Sequence record: MZ501075
Source: Escherichia phage IrisVonRoten
Length of the DNA stretch: 64,000 bases
Direction: 5' to 3' (one strand)
Each line of letters starts with the position of its first letter. Position 1 is the stretch's first letter. This document shows positions 717 to 43,340 of this stretch, piece after piece. Under the pieces are notes generated by a model. The model worked only from the letters and a program-made list of their open reading frames with translations. It was not told the DNA's origin and ran no database searches. Made by a program: the position numbers and the translations under genes.

Positions 717-2069
717 TTATAAGCTGTTGCCAAATGCAATTTTAGCTAATTGAACTGCTTTCTCCGGAGTCATAGTAATAGTTTTCCATCCGTTGTTACG
801 ATATACTGCCATACGTCCAGAAGCCTGTCTTAGTCCAGTGCCACCTTTCATAATTAGATCTACAACAATAGGGTCGAGTTTACCCTCGACAATACGTTGA
901 ACACGGCCTGCAAGCTGTTCAATGAGAGATTCATTATTAATGAGGCTTCCCATTATTAAACAAGATAGCTCATTAAGGGAAATACCTTCAGAGAAGATAC
1001 TTTGAGCTGCTGCAAGTACACAAGGGGCACCTTTTGCTATATCTTTCTGAATTTTTAACCGATCATCAAGTGGGGTTGCGCCAATAATCTCATAGGTTGT
1101 GACGCCTCGCTGAGATAGTGCTTCTAGTACTGTTTGGATTAACTCTGTTCTATCACTTACAATGAGTACTTTATGTCCCATATTCACATATAAATGTGCT
1201 AGGTTTATAATAGTCTCTCGATATTCAGGATGATTATACACATCGTTAGCACGTAATGCCCACGGTACGTTTTGGTTTCCTGATAGCTCAACAGGCACGG
1301 AGTACCTATGGATTGTAGGTGCAACAGTATTATTAACCGGCGGGCTAAATATCTTATATCCAAAGAAATCTTTGAACATAACTTGCAAGCCATCCTTCCG
1401 TTTTAATGTTCCAGATAGTCCGATCTTATAGCGAGCACAGGATATTTCTAGGAAGTTAGTGAAAGTTGTAGCTACACAATGGTGAACTTCATCAACTATA
1501 ACAGTACCGAATACTTTAGAAAGATTATTCGCATGTTTATTCACTGTTTGAATATTACTGACTACAATTGGTGGATCAATATTATATTTCCCAGAACCTA
1601 TGATACCTGGTTCAAACCCAAACCATTTACGAACTTCTGCCGCCCACATTTCACGAATAGATGTGTTGGTACAAATTACCAAAGTTTTTTGGCCAAATTT
1701 ATACGCAAGTGCAAGGGCTAGGATAGTTTTACCAAATCCAGGCTTACCATTAATAATACAGGTATCATCGCATTCTTCGTATATTGGGAGCTGATCTTCT
1801 TCACGCAGTTTGAACTTAGGTTTTGGTATATCTACAGGAGCTAATGTGCGTTTATCGACTAATTCGTATTTTACTCCTTTAGCATCTAGTAAATCCAGAC
1901 GCGTGATAGGAATCCACTTAATCTCTTTAGCAACAACACCACTATTCTTATACATAATAGGGTATTTACTAGTCATTGTCTCAATGTGATAAGTGGTTTG
2001 CTTACTACAATAATCCCAAAGTTCATCATCGGGCTTGAAATAGGCTTTATTAGATATAACAACCTTCAT
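717..2069 (-). CDS. SF2 DEAD/DEAH-box helicase (T5 D10-like)
   Basis: Walker A GKPGFGKT and DEVH box in translation. Confidence 0.8.
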   Translation of the reverse strand: MKVVISNKAYFKPDDELWDYCSKQTTYHIETMTSKYPIMYKNSGVVAKEIKWIPITRLDLLDAKGVKYELVDKRTLAPVDIPKPKFKLREEDQLPIYEECDDTCIINGKPGFGKTILALALAYKFGQKTLVICTNTSIREMWAAEVRKWFGFEPGIIGSGKYNIDPPIVVSNIQTVNKHANNLSKVFGTVIVDEVHHCVATTFTNFLEISCARYKIGLSGTLKRKDGLQVMFKDFFGYKIFSPPVNNTVAPTIHRYSVPVELSGNQNVPWALRANDVYNHPEYRETIINLAHLYVNMGHKVLIVSDRTELIQTVLEALSQRGVTTYEIIGATPLDDRLKIQKDIAKGAPCVLAAAQSIFSEGISLNELSCLIMGSLINNESLIEQLAGRVQRIVEGKLDPIVVDLIMKGGTGLRQASGRMAVYRNNGWKTITMTPEKAVQLAKIAFGNSL

Positions 2070-7627: not shown

Positions 7628-8395
7628 TTATTCAGCAGCCGCAGCTTTTGCATCCAGTTTAGCACGCTTAGCGGCACCATCATAGTCCTTAGCAACCAGA
7701 CCACGACGAGACAGCATAGATTTAACACCGCGCTCAGACTTACCAGTTTTCTCAGCGATCTCAGCAACAGTCATGTTAGCCAGATCCAGACCTTCTAAAA
7801 GATCTTCACGAGTTTTAGCACTTGAAGTTTCCTGTACCGGCATAGCAGCGATACGACCTTCACGAAGCAGACTCAGAGCTTTACCACGGATCTGCTTGAT
7901 ATTACGACCGAAGTGAGCAGCGATAGCTTCAATAGTAGCTCCAGCAACAACCTGATTAACAAAGTCAGTTTCTTCATCCGGAGTGAAGGAACGAACAGCA
8001 GCAGCTTTTTCGGTCGGCTTAACAGATGCGGTCATTTCCAGACTCAAGATTTTACCCTGTACCTGCTTAGCACCGAACTGACCACCAGCTACAGCAGCAG
8101 CGATTTCAGCATAAGTATACTGACCAGCATGAGCGTTCAGGAAATCAACCAGTTCAGCTTCCTGCTCAGGAGTCCATGGGGATTTCTGTACTTCGTTAGC
8201 TTTCTGTACTTCGAAACCTTCTTTACGCAGCTTAGAGCCAACAGAGCGAGCGGTAACGTCTTTGCCAGTTTCAGCAGCCAGTTCAGCAGCGATAGCAGCT
8301 ACTTGTTCTTGAGAGATTACAGCAACACCCAGAGCAGTGGCTTTTGCTTTCAGAGACTCGGTTACACCTTCTACGTTCCAGTTCAGTTTAGACAT
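7628..8395 (-). CDS. hypothetical Ala-rich protein, possible DNA-binding
   Basis: 255-aa ORF with phage-typical codon usage; function not recognisable. Confidence 0.55.
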   Translation of the reverse strand: MSKLNWNVEGVTESLKAKATALGVAVISQEQVAAIAAELAAETGKDVTARSVGSKLRKEGFEVQKANEVQKSPWTPEQEAELVDFLNAHAGQYTYAEIAAAVAGGQFGAKQVQGKILSLEMTASVKPTEKAAAVRSFTPDEETDFVNQVVAGATIEAIAAHFGRNIKQIRGKALSLLREGRIAAMPVQETSSAKTREDLLEGLDLANMTVAEIAEKTGKSERGVKSMLSRRGLVAKDYDGAAKRAKLDAKAAAAE

Positions 8396-13077: not shown

Positions 13078-13591
13078 ATCTCTCCGAGGGATTAAATTCA
13101 CCAAACAATTCTTTAACTCCCCTAAGGTATAGCTGATGGGCTTCTTCCGGGGTATCTCGTCTACCAAAAATATGCTGCTTTCCATCGCAGTAAGCGTAGG
13201 CCATATACCTATTACCTCGTTTTACAACTCCAGTGAATCCGGTAGAATTAGTAGAACACTTCTTATTCTTTCCATTTTCGGAATAGGTAGCCTTACGTAA
13301 ATTATCCCACAAGTTGTTTAAACTATCACCGTCTTTATGGTCGATAGTTTTATCTCCAGGATCTTCGCCTGTCTTTATAAACCAGATTATTCTATGGGCT
13401 AAGTAAGCTGTCCGCTCCCCATTTATCGTAAACTCTAACTGTCTCCCAGTTTTCATTTTGGAGCCCGCTACCTTTCCCTTCCTTGGGCCAGATAACCAAA
13501 TTAAGTCCCCAGTACTTTCGTCATACCTAAGCTTTTCTAGGATAAATTCCATAGGAGGCATTGGTTTATGCATCTTCATTAGTTGCTCCAA
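13061..13591 (-). CDS. HNH homing endonuclease
   Basis: IDHKDGDSLNNLWDNLR HNH core in translation. Confidence 0.65.
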   Translation of the reverse strand: MEQLMKMHKPMPPMEFILEKLRYDESTGDLIWLSGPRKGKVAGSKMKTGRQLEFTINGERTAYLAHRIIWFIKTGEDPGDKTIDHKDGDSLNNLWDNLRKATYSENGKNKKCSTNSTGFTGVVKRGNRYMAYAYCDGKQHIFGRRDTPEEAHQLYLRGVKELFGEFNPSERYDSEE

Positions 13592-16352
13592 GTTCGGACA
13601 TTACTTCTTCTGCCATAGCTTTCTCCTCCTCTGTCATGAATTTGAAAGGAATTGGCATACACTCTATTTTACAATAGGTTCTGTACCAGTCTACGATATT
13701 CTCCGTGTTCATATCTTTACCAATACCCATCATACCAAGATACATTCTAGCATATTTTGGGTTCGCACTCTGACCTGTTTTAAGGAAGAAGTCCTTCTTC
13801 TTACCTTTCAGAGCTTCTATGAATGGTTTAATGGTCACATTTGAACATTTCTTAATATCTTCCCAGAACATCTCGTGCATCTTATGGAAGAATGCAGCTC
13901 GATCATTCGGCTTATCTTTGATATATTGTTCAACATGCTCAACTGTTACATCTTTAATAGACTCAAGATGATAGTAGCGAACAAGAAGTAGTTTAGCTTC
14001 ATACGCATCCACATGACGTGGAGCACAATAATCCGGAGTTGAATGTAGAATAGCTTTGATTCGCTCTTCTGTGTACTCTTTACCAGCACCTTCAATAGTT
14101 CCCCAGCTTTCGCTGAAAATATCAATAGTTGCACCCTGATCAAGCAAGTAATAACGTAAGGTACTAGTATAGTTTCTAGATTCCAGCTCCCTGCGACGTG
14201 CATATAATTGCTGTGCTAACTCCAGCCAACCCTCATCAATATTATATTGTTCAGAACCTGCAGAGAATCCACTCGTAGATTTATCAATAAAATAATAGAT
14301 ATTCTGAGCACCACGGTCGCGCCTGATTGCTTGAAAACGCATGTTTGGCGCTTGATTACTAGTTCTCGTAATAACAAATACGTTATCGAAGTAGTTGAAG
14401 TCAACGCCACTCGTTACGGATGGACTACATAATAAGCAATCAATTTGTTGATCAATTAGCTCATTAGTTGTGTAATCCAGAATACGTCTAATATCCACAT
14501 CAGATGTAGAGTTTGAATGGATTTCCTTAACTAACGCACCAGTATTGCGACGTAGTGCCATACCCTTCTCATTAAGCTCATCAGGCCCACAATCAGATAC
14601 TAGAATAGATTTCTCACCCATCTCTAGAGAAGTCTGAAGTGCAACCCAAATACTGGACTCATCAGGGAACTCATAAGCATGAGCTTTTGACAGCATTTTA
14701 CGGTGATGATTGTAAAATGCTACTGGTTTATCGAACTCAATCAAAGAACCATATGCTTCAATTGTTTCAGCACTAATATCACCATCTGATAGTATAATGA
14801 TTTTTGCAGTTGCAAGAATATCACGAAGAACCTGAATACACTCACGACGTTGCTTAACAACCGGGGCGAATAATAGGTCATTCATTACTGCATCACATTC
14901 ATCTATAAAGATTGCATCAATTTGACCAATAAAACTCTTAAACTTATGCAAAGAGTGAATGGTTGTGGACATACGGTCAATAGCACCACGCTTGAAATTA
15001 AGCATATCTACAGACTTATCATATTGTCCTGCACTAAATTTCTTAGCATTTGAAGATACCAGTGCTCTAGTGTTGGTAATTGCTAAGAAATTACCTTTAA
15101 TAACTCCTGAATCCAGCCAACGAACAACAGCTGTTGTTTTACCCGTGCCTAGACTTGCTTTTACAAAAGTCATATAGCCTTCTGGTGGTACAGTATTTAA
15201 TTTCAAGAAGTTGTCGGTCTCTAGTGAATTAGTTTCTAGCTTTTTAAGGGGGATACCTTTTAATATTTCAGGGATCTCACGCTTAGAGTTATTCACAAAG
15301 GCTTTTAATGCCTGCTTCCGTCCGTTATTGAAATAATCCTGAATATTACGGCTATTATCTTTAGTTGCAATATATTCTGATAAAGCTGGGCGGATTTCTT
15401 TTTCTAGCCAACCAAAATCTACCCCATCCTCTAACGCTCGGTGATATAGCTTTGGAATAATACGTAAGTATACCCCATCATCAGCCTCTTCTAGCTCACT
15501 GATAGTTTCCTCTACTTTATCAGAGGCAGCTTTTTTACCTTTAATTTGATCGAGTAAAGAGTAGAATTCCTCTTTAAACTCTCCTCTAGTTGTTTCATAG
15601 TCAACTAGATTATTAGGTAAATTTACTTTTGAGCCTTTAACAAATACCAGACGTGAAGCACCCTCCGCTTTAAACGGATCAACTATACCATCAGTAAATA
15701 AAGGATCTGCAAAATAGTGGAGCTGTACGGAAGAGTAATAAGCTAAGTCGGCAATATCAAAGCCATACTTTTGTCTACTACTTTCGTTGATAGATGTAAA
15801 TAAGAACTTGATCTGACCCTGTGTAACTTTAACATTAGATTCTAGTATTAAGTGCATTCGGATACCTGGTTTTAGTCCAGCCGAAGACGATGCATGAGCA
15901 ATAAACCCTGCATCAAGAGGAAACATATCCTCACTAATACTATTCAACATCCTAATAATAAGACGCGCCATGCCAACAAGATCAAACTTGTTACAACCTC
16001 CTGTATCTACAATACCATCCACATCCATTGCGATTATATGACTTGGATTAGATACATTAAAGTTGCCCTTCTTACGTCGCACATTATTTTTGGGTGCAAG
16101 ACATCGACCTCGCACCGCAACGATATGAGGGTCAGACGTTAAACGTCTCATAAGAGGAAGCATTTCTACTAGGGTTTGAGGATCAACTTCGTCAATTACA
16201 TCAAACTTGAAGGGCATTGAAGCTGGTTTACCTTCAGGATGCTTTGAGGAAAATCTTTTAGCAAAAAGATAATCTTCTGCTTTAACTTCTCGCCAATTGC
16301 CTGTGGCTAAATCGCGATGAAATCCTGCATGACCTTGTAGGATTGAAAACAC
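13566..16352 (-). CDS. large replication-associated P-loop ATPase (putative origin-binding/helicase protein)
   Basis: Walker A GTGKTT, IFIDECD Walker B-like; start placed at GTG after AGGAG SD; track ORF extends to 16430. Confidence 0.65.
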   Translation of the reverse strand: MFSILQGHAGFHRDLATGNWREVKAEDYLFAKRFSSKHPEGKPASMPFKFDVIDEVDPQTLVEMLPLMRRLTSDPHIVAVRGRCLAPKNNVRRKKGNFNVSNPSHIIAMDVDGIVDTGGCNKFDLVGMARLIIRMLNSISEDMFPLDAGFIAHASSSAGLKPGIRMHLILESNVKVTQGQIKFLFTSINESSRQKYGFDIADLAYYSSVQLHYFADPLFTDGIVDPFKAEGASRLVFVKGSKVNLPNNLVDYETTRGEFKEEFYSLLDQIKGKKAASDKVEETISELEEADDGVYLRIIPKLYHRALEDGVDFGWLEKEIRPALSEYIATKDNSRNIQDYFNNGRKQALKAFVNNSKREIPEILKGIPLKKLETNSLETDNFLKLNTVPPEGYMTFVKASLGTGKTTAVVRWLDSGVIKGNFLAITNTRALVSSNAKKFSAGQYDKSVDMLNFKRGAIDRMSTTIHSLHKFKSFIGQIDAIFIDECDAVMNDLLFAPVVKQRRECIQVLRDILATAKIIILSDGDISAETIEAYGSLIEFDKPVAFYNHHRKMLSKAHAYEFPDESSIWVALQTSLEMGEKSILVSDCGPDELNEKGMALRRNTGALVKEIHSNSTSDVDIRRILDYTTNELIDQQIDCLLCSPSVTSGVDFNYFDNVFVITRTSNQAPNMRFQAIRRDRGAQNIYYFIDKSTSGFSAGSEQYNIDEGWLELAQQLYARRRELESRNYTSTLRYYLLDQGATIDIFSESWGTIEGAGKEYTEERIKAILHSTPDYCAPRHVDAYEAKLLLVRYYHLESIKDVTVEHVEQYIKDKPNDRAAFFHKMHEMFWEDIKKCSNVTIKPFIEALKGKKKDFFLKTGQSANPKYARMYLGMMGIGKDMNTENIVDWYRTYCKIECMPIPFKFMTEEEKAMAEEVMSELGATNEDA

Positions 16353-16852
16353 AACAATACTCCTGTGTTGGAAATGAAATAAGTTTTCTTTAGGACTATT
16401 CAGAAAGAATAGAACAACTGTTACTGTCAATTTCTCAACAAATTAATTGCAAATACTGAAGTGGGGTGGCAACTTCCACTTTCACGCTGCGCTGCTGCCT
16501 CATTATATCGCACAAATCCTTGAGGATGGCCGCTAAGCCAGATTTGCTCACCTAATGCTTCATATACTAGCTCATACTAGATGCAATATAACTTACAGAA
16601 TCACGTCTCGGTAGTTTTTCACTCCTCCCATCTCACTTCACAACCACCTCATACTAGGTTGCTTCGAGGCCTTACCAGGGTTCCTATGGGACGCAGATCG
16701 CTAAGTATTCTATTAACTATTTGTTTAAAAACTAACACGTAACAGTTAAAACAACCCTTAATGGGGCAGCCTAACTGTTCCGTATCGCGGATTGTAAACA
16801 AGAAAAATTAGTAAAACCAATTTTTACTAATGTCTCTCAATTCAATATAAAT

Positions 16853-16881
16853 ATTATATCAAGATTTTGAGTATCATGCAA
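16853..16881 (-). promoter_or_regulatory. promoter upstream of long leader of the 954-aa ORF
   Basis: Reverse strand TTGCAT, 17-bp spacer, TATAAT. Confidence 0.5.
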
Positions 16882-16921
16882 GTAAAATTTTCCGGATGGT
16901 GCTATCAGTGTCTTTGAGTAC

Positions 16922-16950
16922 AGAGAAAACCGAGCCAAAATGACTCGGTT
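16922..16950 (-). terminator. rho-independent terminator (minus strand)
   Basis: AACCGAG...CTCGGTT hairpin followed by TTTTCTCTG on reverse strand. Confidence 0.55.
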
Positions 16951-16957
16951 ATACGGA

Positions 16958-17152
16958 TTAATCATAAAAAAGACCACGAATAGTATTAGCAAATTTAAGT
17001 ATAATAGCGCGGTTTGAGCTACTTAACTTTTTAATATCGAAAGTGGGATCAGTCAAATATCTCGCCATAAATTTTACTTGTTTAGCGGAAAGTTGACCCT
17101 TATTCCACTTTTTAATTTTACCATAACATACCCAATATTCTTTATTCATCAT
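16958..17152 (-). CDS. hypothetical small protein
   Basis: 64-aa ORF. Confidence 0.4.
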   Translation of the reverse strand: MMNKEYWVCYGKIKKWNKGQLSAKQVKFMARYLTDPTFDIKKLSSSNRAIILKFANTIRGLFYD

Positions 17153-17534
17153 TTAGTCCCGGAACATAGATTCCAACACGATTTAATTGTTCTTTAGCTT
17201 CTTTGAGAATACCTGGAGTGTACTCCCAAATATCATCTTCCACCTGTAAAAGATGGGGCGAACAACCGTCACCAGGCACACGACATATGGCCAAACCACG
17301 TGGATGGAACAAAGAGAAATTTAGTGCAACAATTAAACCCATAGCAGACAATTCATTCCAATCCAATTCCCATTCCCTAGCGTAGCCTGATAGGAAAACA
17401 CCAACACAGGGATCATCTATTTGCTGCTCTGGAAAAGTGAAGGAGGCTTGTCTTACCCCCAACCAACGTTGTAGCAGCTTCTCCGCACGCTTCACCAAAC
17501 TAGGATCAATCTGACGCCAATATACTTGTTTCAT
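17142..17534 (-). CDS. hypothetical protein, paralogue of 17543-17971
   Basis: Shares G..E..L.EMGL..ALN..LF.P and C-terminal ..VPGL motifs with the adjacent ORF. Confidence 0.55.
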   Translation of the reverse strand: MKQVYWRQIDPSLVKRAEKLLQRWLGVRQASFTFPEQQIDDPCVGVFLSGYAREWELDWNELSAMGLIVALNFSLFHPRGLAICRVPGDGCSPHLLQVEDDIWEYTPGILKEAKEQLNRVGIYVPGLNDE

Positions 17535-34842: not shown

Positions 34843-35065
34843 ATATTCATAAATTAGAGAACAGCGAGCCGATTACGCTGAGTGCAGAATCCCAACCGGA
34901 GCGCATTGAATAGAGTCGGTGGGTTAGTTGGAAAACTAGTACACAGGGGGCGGCAATCCCGGTTAGTGGCTAGAACGTGTAAAATGGGGCGTCTGAAACC
35001 TCTCCCCTAAACTCTTCTTTAATTTACTGATAGTGGGGTGTGGAAATCACTTATGTAGTAACACT

Positions 35066-35138
35066 GCCGATCTAGTATAAAACGGTATTATCAAGCCGTA
35101 ACTGGTGGAAGATGTAGGTTCGAATCCTACGGTCGGTA
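35066..35138 (+). ncRNA. tRNA-like element (acceptor stem + canonical T-arm, no canonical anticodon arm)
   Basis: GTAGG-TTCGAAT-CCTAC T-arm; 7-bp acceptor pairing GCCGATC/GGTCGGT; no 5-bp/7-nt anticodon stem-loop found. Confidence 0.3.
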
Positions 35139-35640
35139 AGAACTGGATAACTGGTGCTTTTAATGTAAAAGCTTCCGAGGTTAGTTGCGCACTGCCTAAA
35201 CCACGCGGTAGTTGGTTCCAGACTAACCAACCAGTCTGCTGAATAGTTTTATTACGATTTAACTATGTCCAGGCTAAAGAAGAACTTTAGAAGGTATTCT
35301 AGGATAGTGAAGTTCTTTCTCCATATCGGAGTAGTTTTTCAAACTATCCACAAAGTGGGAAATGCTGGCATGAGAGATGCCACTAATGGTGCACAATAGC
35401 ACAGGTAATTCGCGATAACTCCTGTTGAGTAGCAGCAAAAAGGTGGGGAGTCATGACCCTAACCTAACCGAGTCCTCAGTATACCGCAGGACATAACCAC
35501 TAAGTCACCTTGACTTAAACTGGAAAATAATAGACGTTACTGTATTTTGTCTTGAAATACTTAATGAGTGAGACTTATGACTCTCCCGGTATCGTCTGTA
35601 TTTTTAAGAGTTTTTACGAGAGTTCTTAAAAATACTTAAA

Positions 35641-35715
35641 CGGGGTGTAGTCTAAGGGAGAGGCAGGAGTCTTCTAAATTCCTTTATGCAGGTTCGAATC
35701 CTGTCACCTCGGCCA
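35641..35715 (+). tRNA. tRNA-Arg (anticodon UCU)
   Basis: Cloverleaf folded by hand: acceptor CGGGGTG/CACCTCG, anticodon loop CTTCTAA, T-loop TTCGAAT, encoded CCA. Confidence 0.7.
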
Positions 35716-35749
35716 ATTTTATTAACTGTAACTAAAACAAAGGAAATAT

Positions 35750-36697
35750 ATGTCTAATACTAAAAATATGAAAGAACTGACTTCTGAGCAAAAAGTAATT
35801 CGCACTATTAAACGTTGGAGTATTGGTGCTGTAGTTGGTTTAGCAGGTTTAATCCTAGCTTTTAATTCATATACTATTGTTTCTGATGGTACGGTTAAAA
35901 CCCAAACATTTCTAGGTAAAGTAGATCCTAACCCAGTATTACCTGGTTTCCATCTTGTAAACCCATTTGCATCTTTCGATACTTTTAGTACAAAAGATAT
36001 TGCTGTAAAATTAGATAAACTTCAGGTTCCTAGCCAGGATAAGTTTAAATCCACTGTTGACCTGACTGTTATGTTGCAGTTTGATGGTTCTAAGGCACCG
36101 ATCAACCGTATTAATGCGGGTACTCAAGATCAGGCTCTAGATAAGTATGTAACTGAAAAATTACTGTCTACTATTCGTGAGTTTGGTAAGTCTGTACCTA
36201 AAGCACAAGATTTGTTTGATGCTAAAATTCAAGCACAATTGCAAACTGCAATTCAACAGGAAGTTGAAGAGTATGCACGCCCCTATGGTTACACAGTTAA
36301 GCAAGTGTTCCTTCAGGATATTACATTGCCACCGGTAATTATGGAACAGGTACAGAATACCAAAGTTCGCGAAGAACAAGTTAATGCTGCGAAAGCTGAA
36401 TTAGCTCGCGTTGAACAAGAAGCACAGCAGAAGGTTAAACAAGCAGAAGCAGATCGTGAAGCTCGTAACAACCAAGCTATTGCAAACGAACGTGATGCAG
36501 ATGCTAAACTGTATGCAGCTAAGAAAGAAGCTGAAGCTAACGCTGCTCTGCAACGTACCATTACTCCTGAGATGATTCGCTGGAAGCAACTAGAAGTTGA
36601 AATGATTCGTGCTCAGAAGTATCAAGGTGGTGTACCGCAGACTGTGGTTGGCACTGGTTATGATGGCCAGATGATTATGGATATGCGTAACAAGTAA
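35750..36697 (+). CDS. SPFH/band-7 (prohibitin/HflKC-like) membrane protein
   Basis: N-terminal TM helix, SPFH-like core, Ala/Gln-rich coiled-coil C-terminus. Confidence 0.7.
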   Translation: MSNTKNMKELTSEQKVIRTIKRWSIGAVVGLAGLILAFNSYTIVSDGTVKTQTFLGKVDPNPVLPGFHLVNPFASFDTFSTKDIAVKLDKLQVPSQDKFKSTVDLTVMLQFDGSKAPINRINAGTQDQALDKYVTEKLLSTIREFGKSVPKAQDLFDAKIQAQLQTAIQQEVEEYARPYGYTVKQVFLQDITLPPVIMEQVQNTKVREEQVNAAKAELARVEQEAQQKVKQAEADREARNNQAIANERDADAKLYAAKKEAEANAALQRTITPEMIRWKQLEVEMIRAQKYQGGVPQTVVGTGYDGQMIMDMRNK

Positions 36698-36721
36698 TAC
36701 CCACACGTAATATTCGAAGTA

Positions 36722-36757
36722 AGCCCTGCGTTCCCTGGAGAGCGCAGGGCTTTTCTG
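36722..36757 (+). terminator. rho-independent terminator after SPFH gene
   Basis: AGCCCTGCG...CGCAGGGCT hairpin followed by TTTTCT. Confidence 0.7.
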
Positions 36758-36772
36758 TATTTAAGATAAGAG

Positions 36773-36806
36773 AAAAGCCCCTAAGTCTTTCGACTAGGGG
36801 CTTTTT
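36773..36806. terminator. bidirectional terminator hairpin
   Basis: GCCCCTAAG...CTAGGGGC hairpin flanked by A-tract upstream and T-tract downstream. Confidence 0.6.
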
Positions 36807-36818
36807 ATTATTGGTTCT

Positions 36819-37013
36819 TTAGAACCATATACTCTTGTTACAGCAACCACCCATACGGGAGGCCAATCTTGACTGAAAATCTACTCTAGGGGGCAGGATA
36901 AGAGTAGGCTTAAAGGCAAAGGGATTGAACGCCGGTATTTGTGTAAACATTGCTGGAGAGCAACAACGTGCTACAGGCATTGGGCAGCACGAAACAGATT
37001 TTCTGCAACACAT
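36819..37013 (-). CDS. Cys-pair-rich small protein (64 aa)
   Basis: ATG after TAAGGAGGA SD; four CC dipeptides (MCCRK, SCCP, RCCS, GGCCN). Confidence 0.45.
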   Translation of the reverse strand: MCCRKSVSCCPMPVARCCSPAMFTQIPAFNPFAFKPTLILPPRVDFQSRLASRMGGCCNKSIWF

Positions 37014-37022
37014 AATTCCTCC

Positions 37023-37439
37023 TTAGGAGTTATTACCACCATTTTGAGCTTTTGCAACTTGGCTTTGGCAGAAGCTATTAAACTTACCCATAAGTGATAC
37101 AAGCTGCTTCCCATCCTCTGTCTTTGCGAAGTCTTCGAAAAGGGCTAGTACTGCTTGTCCTTCCGTAGAAACCTGCGGTTGTTGGGTTTGCTGCTGAACT
37201 TGCTGCTGAGGCACCTGTTGCTGCATTTGTTGAGGCATTTGCGACTGCCCGCTCATTTGCTGCATCATTTGCATAGGACTCACACTTCCAGGGTTTTGCT
37301 GGAAGTGTTGCTGCATCTGTTGCGCTTCTGCTAAACGCTGTTGCAACTGTTGTAGGTAAGGATTATCCAGACCCGGAACGGGCTGCTGGGAGCCCATTGG
37401 TTGATTAAATCCGTTGTTTACAAAACCATATTTACTCAT
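37023..37439 (-). CDS. Gln/Met-rich low-complexity protein
   Basis: ATG after GGGGAGGAG SD; long PQQ/MQQ tract. Confidence 0.6.
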   Translation of the reverse strand: MSKYGFVNNGFNQPMGSQQPVPGLDNPYLQQLQQRLAEAQQMQQHFQQNPGSVSPMQMMQQMSGQSQMPQQMQQQVPQQQVQQQTQQPQVSTEGQAVLALFEDFAKTEDGKQLVSLMGKFNSFCQSQVAKAQNGGNNS

Positions 37440-37460
37440 AATGGGCTCCTCCCCTTAATT

Positions 37461-38441
37461 TTAAGCCGGCAGTTTAGCCTGCAGACCAGCCAGAGTCTGA
37501 GTGATAGCACCAAGACTTACAGCGATTTGATTAATTACCTGACCGTTAGCACCACTACCTGCAGCGATTGCTTCGCGCAGACGGCATTCATTCAGTTCGT
37601 CCTGGATACGTGCAGTAGTTACACCAGCGATTGCAGTCTGAAGCTCACAGCAACATTCAGCAAGCTGACGTTCGATAGCGTTCTGGTTAGCACACATCTG
37701 AGCCTGAACAGCGGCAAACTGGTTGTTGGTCTGAATAGACTGCTGGAAAGCAATCTGAGCAGAGTCAAACTTATCTTGAGCACGTGCGATCTGGTTAGCA
37801 GCGAAAGATTGATCCATCTGACGAGAAAGATCGAATTGACCCTGAATAACGTTACGAGTTTCAGCACAGATCTGGTTTGACAGATTAGCACCTGTACCAT
37901 AGATAGTAGTCAGAACTTGCTGAGTGCTAGCAGCTTGAGCAGCTCCCACACCGTTTACTGCGCTTAGAACAGCCCCAGTGCCCTGGTTAGCTTCTGTACG
38001 AGTAGTATTGATTGCAGCTAGAATACTTGCAGTATCTTGGTTAGAAAGGATCGCGTCCACAGCAGTCCCTTCAGCGGCAACGCCAGCACCACGGCCAAAA
38101 CCACCAAAACCACCAAATCCGCCCGTTAATAGAGCACCGATTAGGATAGCTCCGAATAGACCCATACCTTCTCCACCGAAAGCACTTGCGTTAGCTGGGA
38201 ATGCACCCATGCCAGGGAAGCCGTTAGTAAATACGTTTACTGGTTCTTGCATTTTATGTTTTCCATATTTATGACAATGTTCATCATAGTCATCTTCTTC
38301 ATCTTTATCATCGTGTTCACGATGTTCTTCTTCGTAGGCTTTGACTTTCTCCCACTTTTTCTTATCTGATTCCTCGTGACGGTGCAGTTCTGCTGCTACG
38401 CTAGCGACGGTTTCAGGACTCTTAGCTACTTCTTCTGTCAT
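37461..38441 (-). CDS. glycine-zipper membrane-associated protein with acidic His-rich N-terminus
   Basis: Start at ATG (MTEEVAK) after AGGAGGTG SD; GLFGAILIGALLTGGFGGFGGFG segment; Ala/Gln/Asn-rich C-terminus with CCC. Confidence 0.6.
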   Translation of the reverse strand: MTEEVAKSPETVASVAAELHRHEESDKKKWEKVKAYEEEHREHDDKDEEDDYDEHCHKYGKHKMQEPVNVFTNGFPGMGAFPANASAFGGEGMGLFGAILIGALLTGGFGGFGGFGRGAGVAAEGTAVDAILSNQDTASILAAINTTRTEANQGTGAVLSAVNGVGAAQAASTQQVLTTIYGTGANLSNQICAETRNVIQGQFDLSRQMDQSFAANQIARAQDKFDSAQIAFQQSIQTNNQFAAVQAQMCANQNAIERQLAECCCELQTAIAGVTTARIQDELNECRLREAIAAGSGANGQVINQIAVSLGAITQTLAGLQAKLPA

Positions 38442-38503
38442 TTTTTGACACCTCCTAGTATATAGAAAATGTGTGTCTCTTTGATCACTCATCCATAACA
38501 TAT

Positions 38504-38532
38504 ACTTTACACTACCCTGGCAAAAATGTCAA
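38504..38532 (-). promoter_or_regulatory. sigma70-like promoter for the opposite-strand cassette
   Basis: TTGACA, 17-bp spacer, TAAAGT about 55 nt upstream of the 37461-38441 start; differs from the T5 early type. Confidence 0.4.
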
Positions 38533-38648
38533 GGGGTCTTTAAAAATTGCCCCCAGATTTTTAGTGGGGTCACAAATTTCGGTCCTGACCACTTACCTGC
38601 TACCCTTAAGCACCCTGTGATTTTCCTCTAAAAAGTTAAAAAATTCAA

Positions 38649-38677
38649 TTGCTTGAATGCTAAATTCTCTGTATAAT
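38649..38677 (+). promoter_or_regulatory. T5-type early promoter
   Basis: TTGCTT, 17-bp spacer, TATAAT, then ATATATTTATAAATTTGAGAGAGG leader. Confidence 0.7.
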
Positions 38678-38707
38678 ATATTTATAAATTTGAGAGAGGA
38701 ATCTAGT

Positions 38708-39226
38708 ATGACTGTTGATGAACTAACAGAACACCTCTTATCTAGAGGGTTTGATGCAGATAAATATCATTGCTGGTTAAGCCCGGAAGGATGGCTAACA
38801 GTACCATTGTATGACTTCTCTGGGATGTTGAGAGGCTATCAGACGTATAATCCTTCTGCTCCAAAAGGTCATGGTAAATCTCCTTTTGAAGCTAAGTATT
38901 TTACTTATTCTACTACACAGTGTGTATGGGGGCTGGAAACTCTCAATGGGGATGAAAAAGTAGTATTGGTTGCGGAATCTGTATTTAAGGCTGTAGCATT
39001 ACATAACGCTGGTTATCCAGCCCTGGCAATGTTGGGTTCTTCTCCAGGAAAAGCGTTGTTAAAGCAATTGAAATTACTACCTTTTAAATTGGTAGCTGTT
39101 GGGGATAATGATCCTGCTGGTGAAAAATTTGCTAGACAATTAAATGGATTTGTTTCTCCTGTAGATGTGGATGAGATGTCTACCGAAAACTTGAAAAATT
39201 TTCTTGCTATGAAGCTAAATTTCTAA
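38708..39226 (+). CDS. small TOPRIM-like domain protein
   Basis: VLVAESVFKAV...VAVGDNDPAGEKFA resembles TOPRIM E...DxD; start placed after GAGAGAGGA SD. Confidence 0.5.
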   Translation: MTVDELTEHLLSRGFDADKYHCWLSPEGWLTVPLYDFSGMLRGYQTYNPSAPKGHGKSPFEAKYFTYSTTQCVWGLETLNGDEKVVLVAESVFKAVALHNAGYPALAMLGSSPGKALLKQLKLLPFKLVAVGDNDPAGEKFARQLNGFVSPVDVDEMSTENLKNFLAMKLNF

Positions 39227-39247
39227 TATAATATATCTTATAAATTC

Positions 39248-39336
39248 GGAAGAATAGCATAACGGTATTGCAGCAGATTGCTAATCTGTCGGTTTGAAAT
39301 ATAGCCTTGTGGGTTCGATTCCCACTTCTTCCGCCA
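39248..39336 (+). tRNA. tRNA-Ser (anticodon GCU)
   Basis: Acceptor GGAAGAA/TTCTTCC, anticodon loop TTGCTAA, long variable arm, T-loop TTCGATT, CCA encoded. Confidence 0.75.
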
Positions 39337-39342
39337 AATTCT

Positions 39343-39420
39343 GGTTCTCAAGCTCATATGGTATGAGCACCCGGCTCATAACCGGAAGGTACGTAGGTTC
39401 GAATCCTCGGGGAGCCACCA
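39343..39420 (+). tRNA. tRNA-Met (anticodon CAU; elongator or Ile2-type)
   Basis: Acceptor GGTTCTC/GGGAGCC, D-stem GCTC/GAGC, anticodon loop CTCATAA, weak T-stem. Confidence 0.6.
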
Positions 39421-39441
39421 TCTTGATTAGAGAGGTTACAA

Positions 39442-39630
39442 GTGGAACTATACCTAGTTTGTGTTGTGTTTATTCCAGATAGGGAATACCCGGATGAATA
39501 TAAAAAAGGATATAGGTTAGCTAGGGCTACCTCTGAAGCTCAGGCTATGGATAAAGTGGCAGATTATATGATTACGGTAGAAAACGTACACTATATCGAC
39601 TCCCTTGAAGCCTCAAAAGTAATTGAATAA
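39442..39630 (+). CDS. hypothetical small protein
   Basis: GTG start after AGAGG. Confidence 0.4.
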   Translation: MELYLVCVVFIPDREYPDEYKKGYRLARATSEAQAMDKVADYMITVENVHYIDSLEASKVIE

Positions 39631-39639
39631 GGAAACTAT

Positions 39640-39825
39640 ATGTCTAAGTTTCAAGAACTCAAGCAAGAGCTAGAAGAATGTGCCTGCCCTGAATGTCGGG
39701 GGATTGGAGAAAGTTCTGATGCAGAAGCAGGGGATACTTTTTGCAATATCTGGGTTTGCCCTACATGCAAAGGCACAGGCATTAATCCTACCTGTGGTAT
39801 TTCTCTAGATATTGAACGAGGTTGA
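39640..39825 (+). CDS. small zinc-ribbon protein
   Basis: CxxC...CxxC pairs (CACPECRG, CPTCKG). Confidence 0.5.
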   Translation: MSKFQELKQELEECACPECRGIGESSDAEAGDTFCNIWVCPTCKGTGINPTCGISLDIERG

Positions 39826-39927
39826 TACCCGTGAAACTAAAAGATTATTATATTGGTTGGTTTGTAGGATTAGTAGTAGGGTTTTCTCTAGGCTATAATA
39901 TGTATCAACTAATAAACTGATTACATG

Positions 39928-40004
39928 GGGGGTGTAATCGAATTGGCATAGGTACTGGACTTAAAATTCAGGTTTTGTGGGTTCGAATCCCACCACCCCT
40001 ACCA
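39928..40004 (+). tRNA. tRNA, probable Leu (anticodon UAA) with short variable loop
   Basis: Acceptor GGGGGTG/CACCCCT, anticodon stem CTGGA/TTCAG with loop CTTAAAA, T-arm GTGGG-TTCGAAT-CCCAC; D-arm irregular. Confidence 0.5.
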
Positions 40005-40019
40005 ACTTAAGGAAATAAG

Positions 40020-40187
40020 ATGTATAGACATCCACCTCCGCCAACACGTCGTTCTAGGGAAGTCATCCTCATGGAATTGACGAAAAACTTCAAGGCGACC
40101 CTTGAGGATAGAGACTTAGGCACAGATGAAGACGTTGATTTCATCTGTAAACTATTAAAAATGAAACTGGAGAAACAACATGGCTAA
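40020..40187 (+). CDS. hypothetical small protein (55 aa)
   Basis: ATG after AAGGAAA SD directly after the tRNA. Confidence 0.4.
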   Translation: MYRHPPPPTRRSREVILMELTKNFKATLEDRDLGTDEDVDFICKLLKMKLEKQHG

Positions 40188-40386
40188 TCCTGAAATTACC
40201 ATGCAACGATTCATGGCTAAAGGCATGATAGCCGAGGCAGGCATTGAACAAGAAGTAAAAAGTTATTACGAACAGATTAAGGATATTATAGACTCTGCTA
40301 AAAACACCGGAGAAAAAGAACACGGTGCGGCAATTATGGCTATAACTCTTATTAGTCTAGACTTGGCCGAAGAATCCGGAGTTTAG
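40180..40386 (+). CDS. hypothetical small protein
   Basis: 68-aa ORF. Confidence 0.45.
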   Translation: MANPEITMQRFMAKGMIAEAGIEQEVKSYYEQIKDIIDSAKNTGEKEHGAAIMAITLISLDLAEESGV

Positions 40387-40476
40387 CTCCTCCAAACAGA
40401 ATTTTTAAAAATGTACTTGCCTTTTGCTTTAAATCTCTGATATAATAGTTATATAAATTGATGAAGGAGTTAACTA

Positions 40477-40752
40477 ATGCAAAATCGTGTTGTAGCAACT
40501 GGTATTGAAAGTGCAATCTGTAAATCCTGGGAAGACTGGGAAGGTGAGATTGAGTGGCTCTATCTCTATAACGTAGAACTCCTGCCGGAAGTTAAAGCTA
40601 AATGTGTTGAAGCTGGCATGGCTCCAGATGCAAAAGCTGATATTGATATTTCAATGCCTGAACTTAAAGGTCGTGTAGTTACCGTTAGTAATGAGGGCGA
40701 AGAAGTTTTTGAACTTCCGTTCTCCTTAACTGTCACTCCTAAGTTCGACTAA
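40477..40752 (+). CDS. hypothetical protein
   Basis: ATG after GAAGGAG SD and promoter. Confidence 0.6.
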   Translation: MQNRVVATGIESAICKSWEDWEGEIEWLYLYNVELLPEVKAKCVEAGMAPDAKADIDISMPELKGRVVTVSNEGEEVFELPFSLTVTPKFD

Positions 40753-40880
40753 CTAATACAGCACTGAGCAAGTTCTTCAAAATCTGACTTGCTCAGTGCC
40801 TTAAAACTTGATATAATAGTTATCTAATTTGGAAACATATTTAAAAGTGTTTAAACAAGTATTTGAATGCTTCTAAATAT

Positions 40881-40968
40881 GGGCGTTTATTCCGTAAGTG
40901 GTAGCGGAGGGGATTGTAAATCCCCGGTCATTGCGACTCGAGTGGTTCGACTCCATTAACGCCCACCA
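40881..40968 (+). tRNA. tRNA-Tyr (anticodon GUA)
   Basis: Acceptor GGGCGTT/AACGCCC, anticodon loop TTGTAAA, long variable arm, T-loop TTCGACT. Confidence 0.7.
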
Positions 40969-40976
40969 AATTTAAT

Positions 40977-41051
40977 ACACCTATCGTCTAAAGGCTAGGA
41001 CATCAGGATTTCAATCTGAGAATCGGAGTTCAATTCTCCGTGGGTGTACCA
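40977..41051 (+). tRNA. tRNA-Glu (anticodon UUC)
   Basis: Acceptor ACACCTA/TGGGTGT, D-stem GTCT/GGAC, anticodon loop ATTTCAA, T-loop TTCAATT. Confidence 0.7.
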
Positions 41052-41059
41052 ATTTCTGC

Positions 41060-41136
41060 ATTCCTAGAGTGTTACTGGACAGCATGTCGGTCTCCAAAAC
41101 CGTACGGTCTAGGTTCGAGTCCTAGTAGGTTTGCCA
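41060..41136 (+). tRNA. tRNA-Trp (anticodon CCA)
   Basis: Anticodon loop CTCCAAA, T-arm CTAGG-TTCGAGT-CCTAG; acceptor stem has mismatches. Confidence 0.5.
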
Positions 41137-41142
41137 AAATTT

Positions 41143-41217
41143 GCACCTTTAGCTGAGATGGATTAGCGCTTGCCTGAAGAGCTTGAGAGGTTCGTTCGAT
41201 ACGAACAGGGTGCACCA
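41143..41217 (+). tRNA. tRNA-Phe (anticodon GAA)
   Basis: Acceptor GCACCTT/AGGGTGC, anticodon loop CTGAAGA, T-loop TTCGATA; anticodon stem has two U-U mismatches. Confidence 0.55.
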
Positions 41218-41234
41218 AATTGAAGGAGATGCTG

Positions 41235-41498
41235 ATGCATCCTGAAAACTTCTTTATTTACTGCGCGGATAAGTCGCTGAAACGTAGAATTAACAAAGTC
41301 TATCATTATCGTGCTAGTCAACAGCCTTATGTATACGCTTTTGACGGCGATCACATTCCACTAGAACAATTATCCTGTGATTACATGATATTGAAGAACT
41401 TTGACGAGACAAAGATCTCAAGCGTTTATAATCGACAAAATCCATTAACGTGGAAATATAAGAAGAAAAAGAAAGGCATCAAATCCTTAAAAATGTAG
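41235..41498 (+). CDS. hypothetical protein
   Basis: ATG after AAGGAG SD. Confidence 0.5.
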   Translation: MHPENFFIYCADKSLKRRINKVYHYRASQQPYVYAFDGDHIPLEQLSCDYMILKNFDETKISSVYNRQNPLTWKYKKKKKGIKSLKM

Positions 41499-41527
41499 TT
41501 GCTTAGTTTCCAAAAGTTCTATATAAT
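41499..41527 (+). promoter_or_regulatory. T5-type early promoter
   Basis: TTGCTT, 17-bp spacer, TATAAT. Confidence 0.65.
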
Positions 41528-41575
41528 AATTACATAAATTGAACTGGAGAAGCAACATGACAGAACAAGATAAAC

Positions 41576-41651
41576 CGACCGTTGGCTGAATGGCTTAGGC
41601 GAAGGATTGCAAATCCTTTTTATGTGAGTTCAAATCTCATGCGGTCGTCCA
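41576..41651 (+). tRNA. tRNA-Cys (anticodon GCA)
   Basis: Acceptor CGACCGT/GCGGTCG, anticodon stem AAGGA/TCCTT loop TTGCAAA, T-loop TTCAAAT. Confidence 0.75.
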
Positions 41652-41653
41652 AT

Positions 41654-41795
41654 TTGCTGAAAGAATTGTTAAATCAATTCAGGCACGCGTAGGAACACTG
41701 TCTCCGTAATTGAAAGATGAGGCACGGTTTGGAGAGGTATGCCGCTACACGCTACGGTGCTAACTCCGTCTAGGTGAAAATCCTAGTCAGCAATA
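41654..41795 (+). ncRNA. long tRNA-like structured RNA (~140 nt)
   Basis: 7-bp terminal pairing TTGCTGA/TCAGCAA, internal hairpin CTAGG-TGAAAAT-CCTAG with non-canonical loop. Confidence 0.3.
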
Positions 41796-41803
41796 TAAAT
41801 TTA

Positions 41804-41886
41804 GGGTCGTTAGCCAAGCGGTTTGGCGGCGGATTGTTAATCCGTGTCGAAAGACAACGTAGGTTCGAATCCTACACGGCCCGCCA
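41804..41886 (+). tRNA. tRNA-Asn (anticodon GUU) with 13-nt variable region
   Basis: Acceptor GGGTCGT/ACGGCCC, anticodon stem GCGGA/TCCGT loop TTGTTAA, T-arm GTAGG-TTCGAAT-CCTAC. Confidence 0.6.
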
Positions 41887-41988
41887 AATTCTGTGTAGAG
41901 TTAAGTAAACCGGTAGCCAACCAGCTATCATTGCTGACATCGAATTCAGCCACAGATACCATTTTCATTAATAACTGAGGAAACAAGC

Positions 41989-42174
41989 ATGTCCAAGAAT
42001 GTGATTGCGCAGCTAGAAGTTCATCGTGATAGTACTATCAACAATATTGAAGTTGAGAAGAAATACATCGAAGAACTTAAACATGATATACTAGTAAGTC
42101 TCAATCGTCTTAATGTACGAAAAGAGTTTCTTAAAGAACTTAATGCAGCTATTGAAAAACTCAAAGCTGAGTAA
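41989..42174 (+). CDS. hypothetical coiled-coil small protein
   Basis: 61-aa ORF with SD. Confidence 0.5.
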   Translation: MSKNVIAQLEVHRDSTINNIEVEKKYIEELKHDILVSLNRLNVRKEFLKELNAAIEKLKAE

Positions 42175-42183
42175 ATAAATTAT

Positions 42184-42260
42184 GCGACCGGGGCTGGCTT
42201 GGTAATGGTACTCCCCTGTCACGGGAGGGAATGTGGGTTCAAATCCCATCGGTCGCGCCA
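42184..42260 (+). tRNA. tRNA-Asp (anticodon GUC)
   Basis: Acceptor GCGACCG/CGGTCGC, anticodon stem CTCCC/GGGAG loop CTGTCAC, T-loop TTCAAAT. Confidence 0.75.
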
Positions 42261-42277
42261 AATAAGGTAGGTTAGCT

Positions 42278-42436
42278 ATGGAACGTAGGGAGTTTACTCC
42301 AGAAGAGATAGAGCAGATAAAAGAATCTGCTATGAAAAATGCTAGAATATCTCTGTCACTGGAAGGTATCATTATTAGTGATGTAAACTTTGAAAAAATC
42401 AAAGCCATAGCTGATGAACTGGAAAAAGTAATTTAA
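42278..42436 (+). CDS. FicA/VbhA-like antitoxin homologue (52 aa)
   Basis: ATG after AAGGTAGG SD; NARISLSLEGI matches the S-x-x-x-E-G inhibitory helix motif recalled for VbhA/YhfG antitoxins; below track cutoff. Confidence 0.5.
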   Translation: MERREFTPEEIEQIKESAMKNARISLSLEGIIISDVNFEKIKAIADELEKVI

Positions 42437-42437
42437 T

Positions 42438-42513
42438 ACATCCATAGCTCAATGGTTAGAGCTACCGCCTCTTAAGCGGAGGGTTCTAGGTTCAAGTCCT
42501 AGTGGGTGTACCA
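42438..42513 (+). tRNA. tRNA-Lys (anticodon CUU)
   Basis: Acceptor ACATCCA/TGGGTGT, D-stem GCTC/GAGC, anticodon loop CTCTTAA, T-loop TTCAAGT. Confidence 0.75.
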
Positions 42514-42539
42514 AATTAAACTAGCACGAGAAATATGCT

Positions 42540-42887: not shown

Positions 42888-42894
42888 TAAAATT

Positions 42895-42999
42895 TCAGTG
42901 CAGAACACGGAGCTAGCAATTCGGAAGTGCTGACTCATGATAAGCTGCCTATGTACTTGCTAAGCGGTCGTGTCCAAGACTCGGACTCTTGCACTGAAA
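42895..42999 (+). ncRNA. structured RNA domain closed by 10-bp long-range helix
   Basis: TTTCAGTGCA at 42895 pairs with TGCACTGAAA at 42990; no ORF. Confidence 0.3.
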
Positions 43000-43009
43000 A
43001 CAATCAAAC

Positions 43010-43130: not shown

Positions 43131-43145
43131 ACACTATAAAGTTTA

Positions 43146-43257: not shown

Positions 43258-43279
43258 AGTAAATTTATTAAAAATTCAT

Positions 43280-43308: not shown

Positions 43309-43340
43309 ATATCTTATAAAGTGAAGAGAAGGAAAGCTAA

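Follow-up and report, generated by a model that had tools for sequence, protein, structure and literature searches.

In Escherichia phage IrisVonRoten (sequence record MZ501075), the gene D2, which encodes a helicase and putative replication initiator, is preceded by a 494-nucleotide (nt) segment on the minus strand (16846-16353; coordinates refer to the window, the whole 64,000-nt stretch of DNA analysed here). Transcribed from a T5-type early promoter, this segment forms the 5′ leader of the mRNA for the D2 helicase, and it is a large conserved structured RNA on the transcribed strand. By comparative sequence analysis, it is an RNA family of its own, new and found only in the T5-like phages examined; its role is probably that of a partner or regulator of D2, and not that of a classical DNA origin. 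The window comes from a T5-like phage (Tequintavirus) whose 1-kb locus is 99.8% identical to Escherichia phage vB_EcoS_ESCO40 and has matches in 529 T5-like phage records. D2 itself (13566-16352, minus strand; 928 amino acids (aa) from a GTG codon) corresponds to T5p106 in AY692264 and encodes a bipolar superfamily 2 (SF2) helicase, proposed by Wong et al. 2013 (PMC3632103) to be the replication initiator of T5.

The fold of the leader was analyzed in alignments generated with MAFFT, first of 10 phages and then of 41 distinct leaders obtained from GenBank, IMG/VR and metagenomes. The consensus fold of the 41 leaders, computed with RNAalifold, comprises 120 pairs in 23 helices. Over these pairs, 93.4% of the alignment cells are paired, compared with 84.5 ± 0.3 in shuffles (0/500), and 53 pairs have changed on both sides, compared with 31.4 ± 2.7 (likewise 0/500). 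Slid controls, in which the 3′ partners were moved by 1-3 columns, retained 37-49% paired cells and 21-33 pairs changed on both sides. As the consensus structure was derived from the same 41 sequences on which it was scored, compensation was also counted inside each of the two main leader types, A and B, where the alignment is unambiguous and variable columns are few (50 in type A, 84 in type B): six pairs in type A and 12 in type B have changed on both sides, compared with 0-1 in the slid controls.

The fold can be assigned to the transcribed strand because G·U combinations far outnumber A·C combinations (758 vs 58 cells, approximately 13:1), so that paired cells amount to 93.4% on the sense strand and 79.0% on the opposite one; approximately 16% of the paired cells are G·U (758/4853). 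The energy of single-sequence folding is unremarkable (z-score -2.0). Compensatory changes above controls and a strand asymmetry of G·U pairs, the features by which a structured RNA is recognized, are both present. The first-pass annotation of this DNA had named a replication origin and a regulatory RNA as the two candidate identities of the region; the second of these now receives strong support in the form of a conserved structured RNA, given the compensatory changes, the 13:1 ratio and the lack of a conserved open reading frame (ORF).

The same annotation had described approximately 500 nt between promoter and D2 as untranslated, with no ORF on either strand. The untranslated stretch is borne out, as a 494-nt leader without a conserved ORF; in its literal form the second statement goes too far, as mechanical ORFs of 28-53 aa exist on both strands. 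None of these is conserved in frame and position across leader types, the sense strand of phage Eps7 lacks any ORF of at least 25 aa, and sequence comparison for a conserved translated small ORF was negative. Some GenBank records nevertheless annotate two to five 'hypothetical proteins' in the gap upstream of D2, and these annotations favor a function unrelated to D2, such as a small-protein locus, a decaying remnant, or a decoy or sponge for a host factor or defense system; phage-encoded structured RNAs can serve as decoys. However, the small ORFs so annotated show no conservation, and constraint on the 5′ domain far exceeds that on synonymous sites, which disagrees with a remnant; synteny with D2 is, moreover, strict across genera. 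A role of this kind is consequently quite improbable, and for annotators the consequence is that 'hypothetical protein' calls in the gap before D2 should no longer be made.

Promoter and boundaries of the transcript

The leader is preceded by an early sigma-70 promoter of the T5 type at 16853-16881 (minus strand), composed of a -35 hexamer TTGCAT (16881-16876), a 17-nt spacer and a -10 hexamer TATAAT (16858-16853). Read directly from the sequence, it lies at the exact position first assigned to it, and a strict consensus promoter scan did not list it. Its alignment with T5 early promoters annotated in AY692264 (PN25, PN26, PK28a and PK28b) is base for base and takes in the upstream A-tract (near -43) as well as TTGAGAGA at +7 to +14. 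The full set of features typical of T5 early sigma-70 promoters is therefore present (TTGC(T/A)-type -35, 17-nt spacer, TATAAT, A-tract and TTGAGAGA), with no notable difference in sequence features from the four promoters named. The leader promoter falls outside the experimentally cloned T5 set; a 'putative promoter' is annotated at the homologous T5 position in GenBank AY692264. In a regex scan, a promoter of this kind was found 516-650 nt upstream of the D2 start (796 in Proteus phages) in 47/48 related loci. By analogy with PN25, transcription is predicted to start at A16846, 7 nt after the -10 hexamer.

The region around the promoter varies among related phages. In some of them, such as SHSML-45 (locus L009, 1857-2309) and SB9 (L010, 1733-2185), a 'DNA endonuclease' gene, homing-endonuclease-like, lies directly upstream of the leader. 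In several phages with this gene (SB9 and loci L021, L027, L028, L065 and L067), a different promoter, TTGCAAGGGAGTATTATTTTATAGTATAAT, is joined to the same +1 region, and SHSML-45 retains both promoters. The Proteus phages of the genus Novosibvirus (L013, L045 and L046) carry two promoters with 12/12 consensus positions (TTGACA, 17 or 18 nt, TATAAT) at 1205-1233 and 1935-1964 of the locus, one at the start of the 764-nt leader and the other 66 nt before D2; no terminator separates the two. The leader of these phages also contains a second CUUAGC motif near its 3′ end.

At the 3′ side, D2 starts at the GTG codon 16352-16350, with AGGAG ahead of it at 16364-16360, which gives the leader a length of 494 nt (16846-16353). 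The large ORF of the first-pass annotation, described as 954 aa with a probable GTG start, is T5 gene D2 (T5p106). Its GTG start holds, and its length does not: 954 aa is the mechanical reading from TTG at 16430, while D2 has 928 aa. The TTG was rejected as a start codon because the extension crosses hairpin P13, whose loop carries frame-breaking 1-nt indels in close relatives. A longer D2 is annotated in some GenBank records (e.g. oselot). No terminator was found between the leader RNA and D2, either in the window or in the Proteus loci.

Upstream, an intrinsic terminator hairpin (16928-16950, minus strand; 10-bp stem followed by a T-run), conserved in the 10-phage alignment, closes the preceding operon after a 64-aa ORF (16958-17152, minus strand). 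This ORF belongs to PHROG 29527, of unknown function, and is located between a DUF7415-type gene and the terminator. It is missing from the same place in T5 (a block of 0% identity, with no coding sequence in AY692264) and represents a presence/absence polymorphism directly upstream of the leader promoter.

Architecture, types and distribution of the leader RNA

The leader folds into a 5′-terminal hairpin (P1), a P2/P2a domain, a closing helix P3 of approximately 32 bp, an inner domain held by P5 and containing the P6-P7 and P8-P10 sub-domains, and the hairpins P12 and P13. All of these are on the minus strand. P1 (16799-16839; GAGAGACAUUAGUAAAA / UUUUACUAAUUUUUCUU, consensus helix 3) has other, still pairing, sequences in the Klebsiella phages and in locus L044; in Salmonella phage oselot (L007, 1649-1679) the P1 loop carries a tandem triplication of ATTTTGCTA, annotated as a repeat_region in MT074465. 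P2 (ACAAUC/GGUUGU) encloses hairpin P2a (together 16751-16795, helices 4-6), which carries the near-invariant ACGGAACAGUUAGGCUGCC; both sides have changed in 5/10 P2a pairs, with 98.8% of cells paired. The central domain is closed by P3, an imperfect helix formed by a 5′ strand at 16715-16748 and a 3′ strand at 16415-16448 (helices 7-9), in which 10/21 pairs have changed on both sides and at least 96% of the cells are paired.

Within the domain closed by P3, the 5′ strand of P5 (16691-16701; GCG-AU-CUGCGU, helix 10) pairs with a 3′ strand located approximately 200 nt downstream (16484-16492; GCGCAG-CGU). In every type, P5 has two stems, of 3-4 bp and 6 bp, separated by an AU bulge that never varies; the 6-bp stem occurs in the same register with five different sequences in five types: CUGCGU/GCGCAG, CUACAC/GUGUAG, CUGUGU/GCACAG, CUAGAA/UUCUAG and CUGUAU/GUACAG. 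The P6-P7 sub-domain (16610-16690) comprises P6 (CCCAU/AUGGG), an inner three-way junction and hairpin P7 with an A-rich loop, and shows compensatory changes within types. The P8-P9-P10 sub-domain (16502-16598) corresponds to consensus helices 17-19. Hairpin P12 (16458-16483; AAGUGG/CCACUU) occurs in the variants AAGGGG/CCCCUU, AUAUGA/UCAUAU, GUAUGG/CCAUAC and GGAGGA/UCUUCC. Hairpin P13 (16396-16412; CUAUUC-UUUCU-GAAUAG, helix 22) is replaced by CUAUC/GAUAG in Klebsiella phages and by CUUUCC/GGAAAG in L044, the 1-nt indels of its loop occurring among type B phages. We claim P1, P2/P2a, P3, P5, P9, P10, P12 and P13 as shared across types, the interior helices being supported within types only.

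P10 (16512-16547) contains an invariant hairpin loop and is built from GCAAAUC/GAUUUGU, a 9-nt internal loop and a terminal hairpin. Both sides have changed in 7/8 of its pairs (helix 18), with 98.8% of the cells paired. In the loop region GGCUUAGCGGCC (16539-16528), the CUUAGCGG inside is invariant and the flanking bases vary; the longer CTTAGCGG is invariant in 10 sequences of seven types, including Providencia and Proteus phages. The CUUAGCGG hairpin loop is thus unchanged from E. coli to Proteus and Providencia phages, and each type presents it on a helix of different sequence with an internal loop on the 3′ side. In the MAFFT alignment, the strands of P10 fall into three different registers and the CUUAGCGG motif is displaced, and a P9-P10 covariance model was abandoned for this reason. 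A scan of IMG/VR for the pattern GATCT-N(135-165)-GCTTAGCGGC returned at least 120 stretches, almost all of them chance occurrences on unrelated contigs, and was not used for lack of specificity.

A pairing partner of the P10 loop was sought in the leader and in the first 120 nt of D2, and the candidates (UUGCUAA in P1, and Phe-Ala-Lys codons at +86) were rejected, as each is confined to some of the types. The GGCUUAGCGGCC hairpin occurs in full only once in the window, which has near-matches to its 10-mer core at four other sites. An exact 10-nt complement of the GCUUAGCGGC loop motif is found at 7666-7675 (plus strand), inside a 255-aa minus-strand ORF (7628-8395) homologous to the Myb-like 'putative transcription factor' of T5; this mRNA was rejected as a loop partner and the complement is probably due to chance, since the window contains five matches with at most one mismatch when 2.1 ± 1.2 are expected.

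The 3′ end of the leader is the ribosome-binding region (16350-16367), in which CAC (16367-16365), AGGAG (16364-16360), a spacer and the GTG start codon (16352-16350) follow each other, and CAC and GUG form a small hairpin (helix 23). The triplet before AGGAG complements the start codon: types A and B have CAC-GUG (UAC and CAU also occur there, with a G·U pair), the Klebsiella phages and Vibrio phage pVp-1 have CAU-AUG, and locus L068 has CAA-UUG.

Along the leader, the sequence is almost constant over the initial ~110 nt and the final ~90 nt, and the central ~290 nt occur in discrete types of the same length and very different sequence, with small conserved islands that are the strands of helices. 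Type A includes the window phage, Gostya9 and DaisyDussoix; type B includes T5, Eps7 and most Salmonella phages; type C is that of Klebsiella Sugarlandvirus, and types D and E are single contigs. Between types A and B, identity is 96% in the 5′ domain, compared with 67% at the third codon positions of D2, which indicates strong purifying selection on the nucleotides of this domain. The 290-nt central domain, by contrast, is 44% identical between A and B, well below the near-neutral D2 third codon positions, and yet keeps its length and helices P5, P10, P12 and P13; it is a replaced cassette and not a drifted copy.

The leader RNA occupies the same place in Tequintavirus, Epseptimavirus and Sugarlandvirus, and is found with the invariant CUUAGCGG in T5-like phages of Providencia (612-616 nt) and Proteus (764 nt). 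An extra 97 nt is present between P1 and P2 in 51 phage records, one copy each and always at this place, equivalent to between 16799 and 16796. Examples are Gostya9 (L004, ~1700-1800, minus strand) and loci L024, L036 and L049. The insert is bounded by a UUUUUCUU repeat, has its own hairpin (AUUUACGG/CCGUAAAU) and is found in phages of type A as well as type B. Its appearance is that of a peripheral RNA domain that some phages have and others lack, not that of a mobile element present in several copies. In Vibrio T5-like phages (pVp-1, L014/L054; L051, L052, L059 and L055-L058), a near-consensus promoter lies ~640-710 nt upstream of the D2 homologue, followed by a long gap without convincing genes in which a GUGAUCU-like motif is visible. 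In these leaders 25/180 predicted pairs are compensated, counted over four sequences only, and homology to the T5 leader RNA is not established.

Matches to described RNAs were sought with the Rfam 15 cmscan against 4227 models, including group I/II introns, RNase P, transfer-messenger RNA (tmRNA), riboswitches, GOLLD, ROOL, OLE, raiA and HEARO. At gathering threshold, the window contains tRNAs only; these form a T5-type cluster at 35065-48592 (plus strand), with 25 genes by ARAGORN, of which 23 reach the Rfam gathering score, and ARAGORN finds no tmRNA in the window. Over 16250-17050, with expectation values (E) up to 10, the only notable match is MicF (16922-17009, minus strand), which was rejected because it scores 33.7 bits against a gathering threshold of 79 and is due to the hairpin and T-run that terminate the upstream operon. 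Eight related loci gave nothing at E up to 0.01, and no match to the leader RNA was found in plasmids or E. coli genomes. No description of the leader RNA was encountered in the searchable literature; parts of it may be among the more than 10,000 candidate phage RNAs catalogued in PMC10690425.

Relationship to D2 and possible functions

The association of the leader with D2 extends into the coding sequence. Between the window phage and T5, identity is 95-100% in the upstream genes, 92-97% in the 5′ domain of the leader, 35-46% in its central domain, 66-96% in the first ~1600 nt of D2 and ~95% in the rest of D2. Among 29 Markadamsvirinae genomes (13 of type A and 16 of type B), the leader type splits the first 1500 nt of D2, where identities are 0.939 for A-A, 0.925 for B-B and 0.832 for A-B comparisons (highest A-B value 0.863). 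No such split is seen in the upstream genes (A-A 0.914, B-B 0.885, A-B 0.901) or in the C-terminal part of D2 (A-A 0.932, B-B 0.915, A-B 0.924). The central domain and the N-terminal half of D2 therefore travel as one module while the flanks recombine freely, and inheritance as a module fits co-adaptation of the two.

The helicase core of the D2 protein (aa 394-533) matches the Pfam family Herpes_ori_bp, solved structures of UL9 from herpes simplex virus (HSV) are matched in a PDB search, and aa 393-708 match the NCBIfam plasmid Rep family CyRepA1 below cut-off. The first ~390 aa have no match in the family, domain and structure searches of D2; for this N-terminal domain, a homologue search gave two fragments only and a single-sequence AlphaFold model had a predicted local distance difference test (pLDDT) score of 34. 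A resemblance of aa 272-360 to RNase H3 (PDB 4py5, E 0.02-0.05) was rejected, as it concerns a helical low-information stretch without the catalytic residues.

These observations make an RNA element coupled in cis to D2, and controlling D2 synthesis, the most likely reading, tentative as it still is, because the central domain and the D2 N-terminal half form one module and the start codon lies in a covarying hairpin. Control would be exerted through translation initiation and/or mRNA stability. The effector would be a phage protein binding the leader, with the N-terminal half of D2 itself as prime candidate (autogenous control), and the invariant loop and conserved junctions may provide the recognition surface.

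Precedents for such control exist. The T4 gene 32 pseudoknot, the T4 gene 43 operator and plasmid rep leaders (IncI-alpha repZ, with its stem-loop I pseudoknot) are also structured 5′ untranslated regions directly before a replication-protein gene. As in autoregulatory leaders of phages and plasmids, the start region lies in a small hairpin, and a G-C-closed hairpin presents a U-rich, YUNR-like loop, UUAGCG, which can be compared with the loop UUGGCG of Inc/Cop systems. In contrast to the T4 gene 32, gene 43 and repZ leaders, the T5-like leader is five to ten times larger, with at least 15 helices, and it shows neither an antisense RNA promoter nor a conserved intramolecular loop partner in our searches. 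A riboswitch does not describe the element: no known class matches, the leader contains no terminator, the RNA is ~450 nt long, and the central domain is replaced between types in a way that a ligand pocket is not.

Several points weigh against cis control or against parts of the argument for it. The start-codon hairpin is local and weak (3-5 bp), and between the large domain and the ribosome-binding site there is no helix with covariation support; a pairing of nt 57-65 with nt 487-495 (spacer and start codon), predicted within types, was rejected as it has no support in the cross-type consensus. At ~450 nt and at least 15 helices, the RNA is far above known bacterial and phage translational operators and riboswitches in size. 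Transcripts from the second Proteus promoter (12/12 consensus, 66 nt before D2) would bypass it altogether. The co-segregation could simply reflect linkage within a single 2-kb block that diverged long ago. Finally, structures derived for one type and carried onto other types through the MAFFT alignment leave 56% of cells paired, compared with 34-48% when slid; this modest transfer is the reason why only the core helices are claimed as shared. It is in part due to misalignment, the 3′ strand of Klebsiella P5 being off by three columns, and in part real, as types A, D and E share an architecture of the P6 sub-domain that differs from the one in B and C.

Some of the same evidence supports a possible, though less probable, alternative, a stand-alone structured RNA or ribonucleoprotein that is co-transcribed with D2 and acts separately in replication or another early function. 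It may be freed by cleavage in the long P3 (e.g. by RNase III) and possibly complexed with D2 or another phage protein, the cleavage being pure conjecture. Its size and complexity resemble those of large ornate non-coding RNAs rather than cis-regulators: like GOLLD, ROOL, OLE, raiA and HEARO/omega RNA, it spans several hundred nt with many covarying helices and conserved junctions and loops, and, as in the GOLLD/ROOL/OLE class, it has variable peripheral domains, a biochemical function that is unknown and a presence in phage genomes. The invariant hairpin loop and conserved junctions, the tolerance of optional domains (the 97-nt insert in 51 records and the 612-764-nt Proteus/Providencia versions), the second perfect D2 promoter downstream of the RNA in Proteus phages and the lack of a conserved helix from the core to the ribosome-binding site all agree with an independent RNA. 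On the other hand, no terminator or recognizable processing signal follows the RNA, and it was never encountered away from D2, with no match in plasmids or E. coli genomes. Unlike GOLLD, ROOL, OLE, raiA and HEARO, which it matches in neither sequence nor structure by the Rfam 15 cmscan, it is always the 5′ leader of one gene and not free-standing.

A second alternative, which we regard as unlikely, is a transcript-dependent origin, for which ColE1 RNA II and the origin transcripts of T4 and T7 are precedents. Here the structured RNA would form an R-loop, or the displaced DNA strand of identical sequence would fold, so as to load D2 and/or prime synthesis, with the RNA and the D2 N-terminal half as an origin-initiator specificity pair. 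As with RNA II, T4 oriF/oriG and the T7 primary-origin transcripts, a strong constitutive promoter produces a non-coding transcript of approximately 500 nt in a replication region; the 494-nt length and promoter strength resemble RNA II, which likewise has a conserved fold. The co-segregation of the central domain with the initiator N-terminal half parallels the lambdoid modules of ori and the O N-terminal domain, in which element and N-terminal half are swapped as a mosaic block and the C-terminal half recombines freely. Unlike the lambdoid ori, the T5-like element is upstream of the gene and not inside it, has no iterons and is constrained in its RNA base pairing.

The position of the locus also agrees with a transcript-dependent origin, as it lies next to the gene for a UL9-like or Rep-like initiator helicase, the proposed T5 initiator (Wong et al., PMC3632103), and near the genome centre, at ~59-64 kb in ~121-kb records. 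This central position is suggestive only, the T5 origin never having been mapped at sequence resolution. The electron microscopy of Bourguignon and colleagues in 1976 is said to have placed early T5 initiation near the genome centre. Wong et al. (PMC3632103) cite that work only for multiple internal origins. Several properties of the leader oppose a transcript-dependent origin: there is no antisense promoter for an RNA I-like regulator, no AT-rich unwinding element, iterons or palindromic boxes, and no skew change, and the ~16% of G·U among paired cells suits folding of RNA over folding of DNA. Unlike ColE1 RNA II, the leader contains no plus-strand promoter-like site, the only one (16244-16273) being inside D2, and no recognizable hybrid-forming or RNase H site, and its transcript runs on into a protein gene.

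A more specific form of the pairing between RNA and initiator, somewhat less likely still, is that leader RNA and D2 N-terminal half are a co-evolving specificity pair that sets where and when T5-type replication starts, the initiator helicase recognizing the nascent transcript or its R-loop. If this were true, the origin would be RNA-defined, and the type A and B cassettes would behave like incompatibility groups among co-infecting T5-like phages.

The classical DNA origin, of the kind exemplified by lambda ori and by HSV oriS for UL9, in which initiator-binding repeats and an unwinding element occupy the non-coding gap and RNA structure is incidental, is by comparison most improbable. It is favored solely by the lack of coding sequence and by the neighbouring gene, which encodes a putative origin-binding protein. 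The difference in composition from the neighbouring DNA, noted in the first-pass annotation, is real but modest, with a GC content of 0.40-0.45 in the leader, ~0.38 in the neighbouring genes and 0.30 around the promoter; the leader is thus GC-richer than its flanks, and the sole AT-rich stretch is the promoter itself. Repeats in 16200-17200 are two-copy families of 9-17 nt at chance level, none of which is conserved in other types, and conserved inverted boxes are absent. Substitutions follow the pattern of RNA that is base-paired on one strand and not that of protein-binding DNA boxes. In its classical form, the origin proposed by that annotation is accordingly not upheld: the region has no iterons or repeated boxes, no AT-rich unwinding element and no skew switch.

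With cis control of D2 synthesis as the favored reading, the leader RNA bears on a classical model phage whose replication origin and initiator control are still undefined at the sequence level. Conserved RNAs of ~450 nt with at least 15 covarying helices are rare in bacteria and phages, and few such large classes are known. As this one is tied to a specific replication protein in the tractable T5 system, the start and regulation of T5 replication become directly testable, and the cassette-like swap in which the central domain and the N-terminal half of the helicase are replaced jointly offers a natural experiment on RNA-protein specificity.

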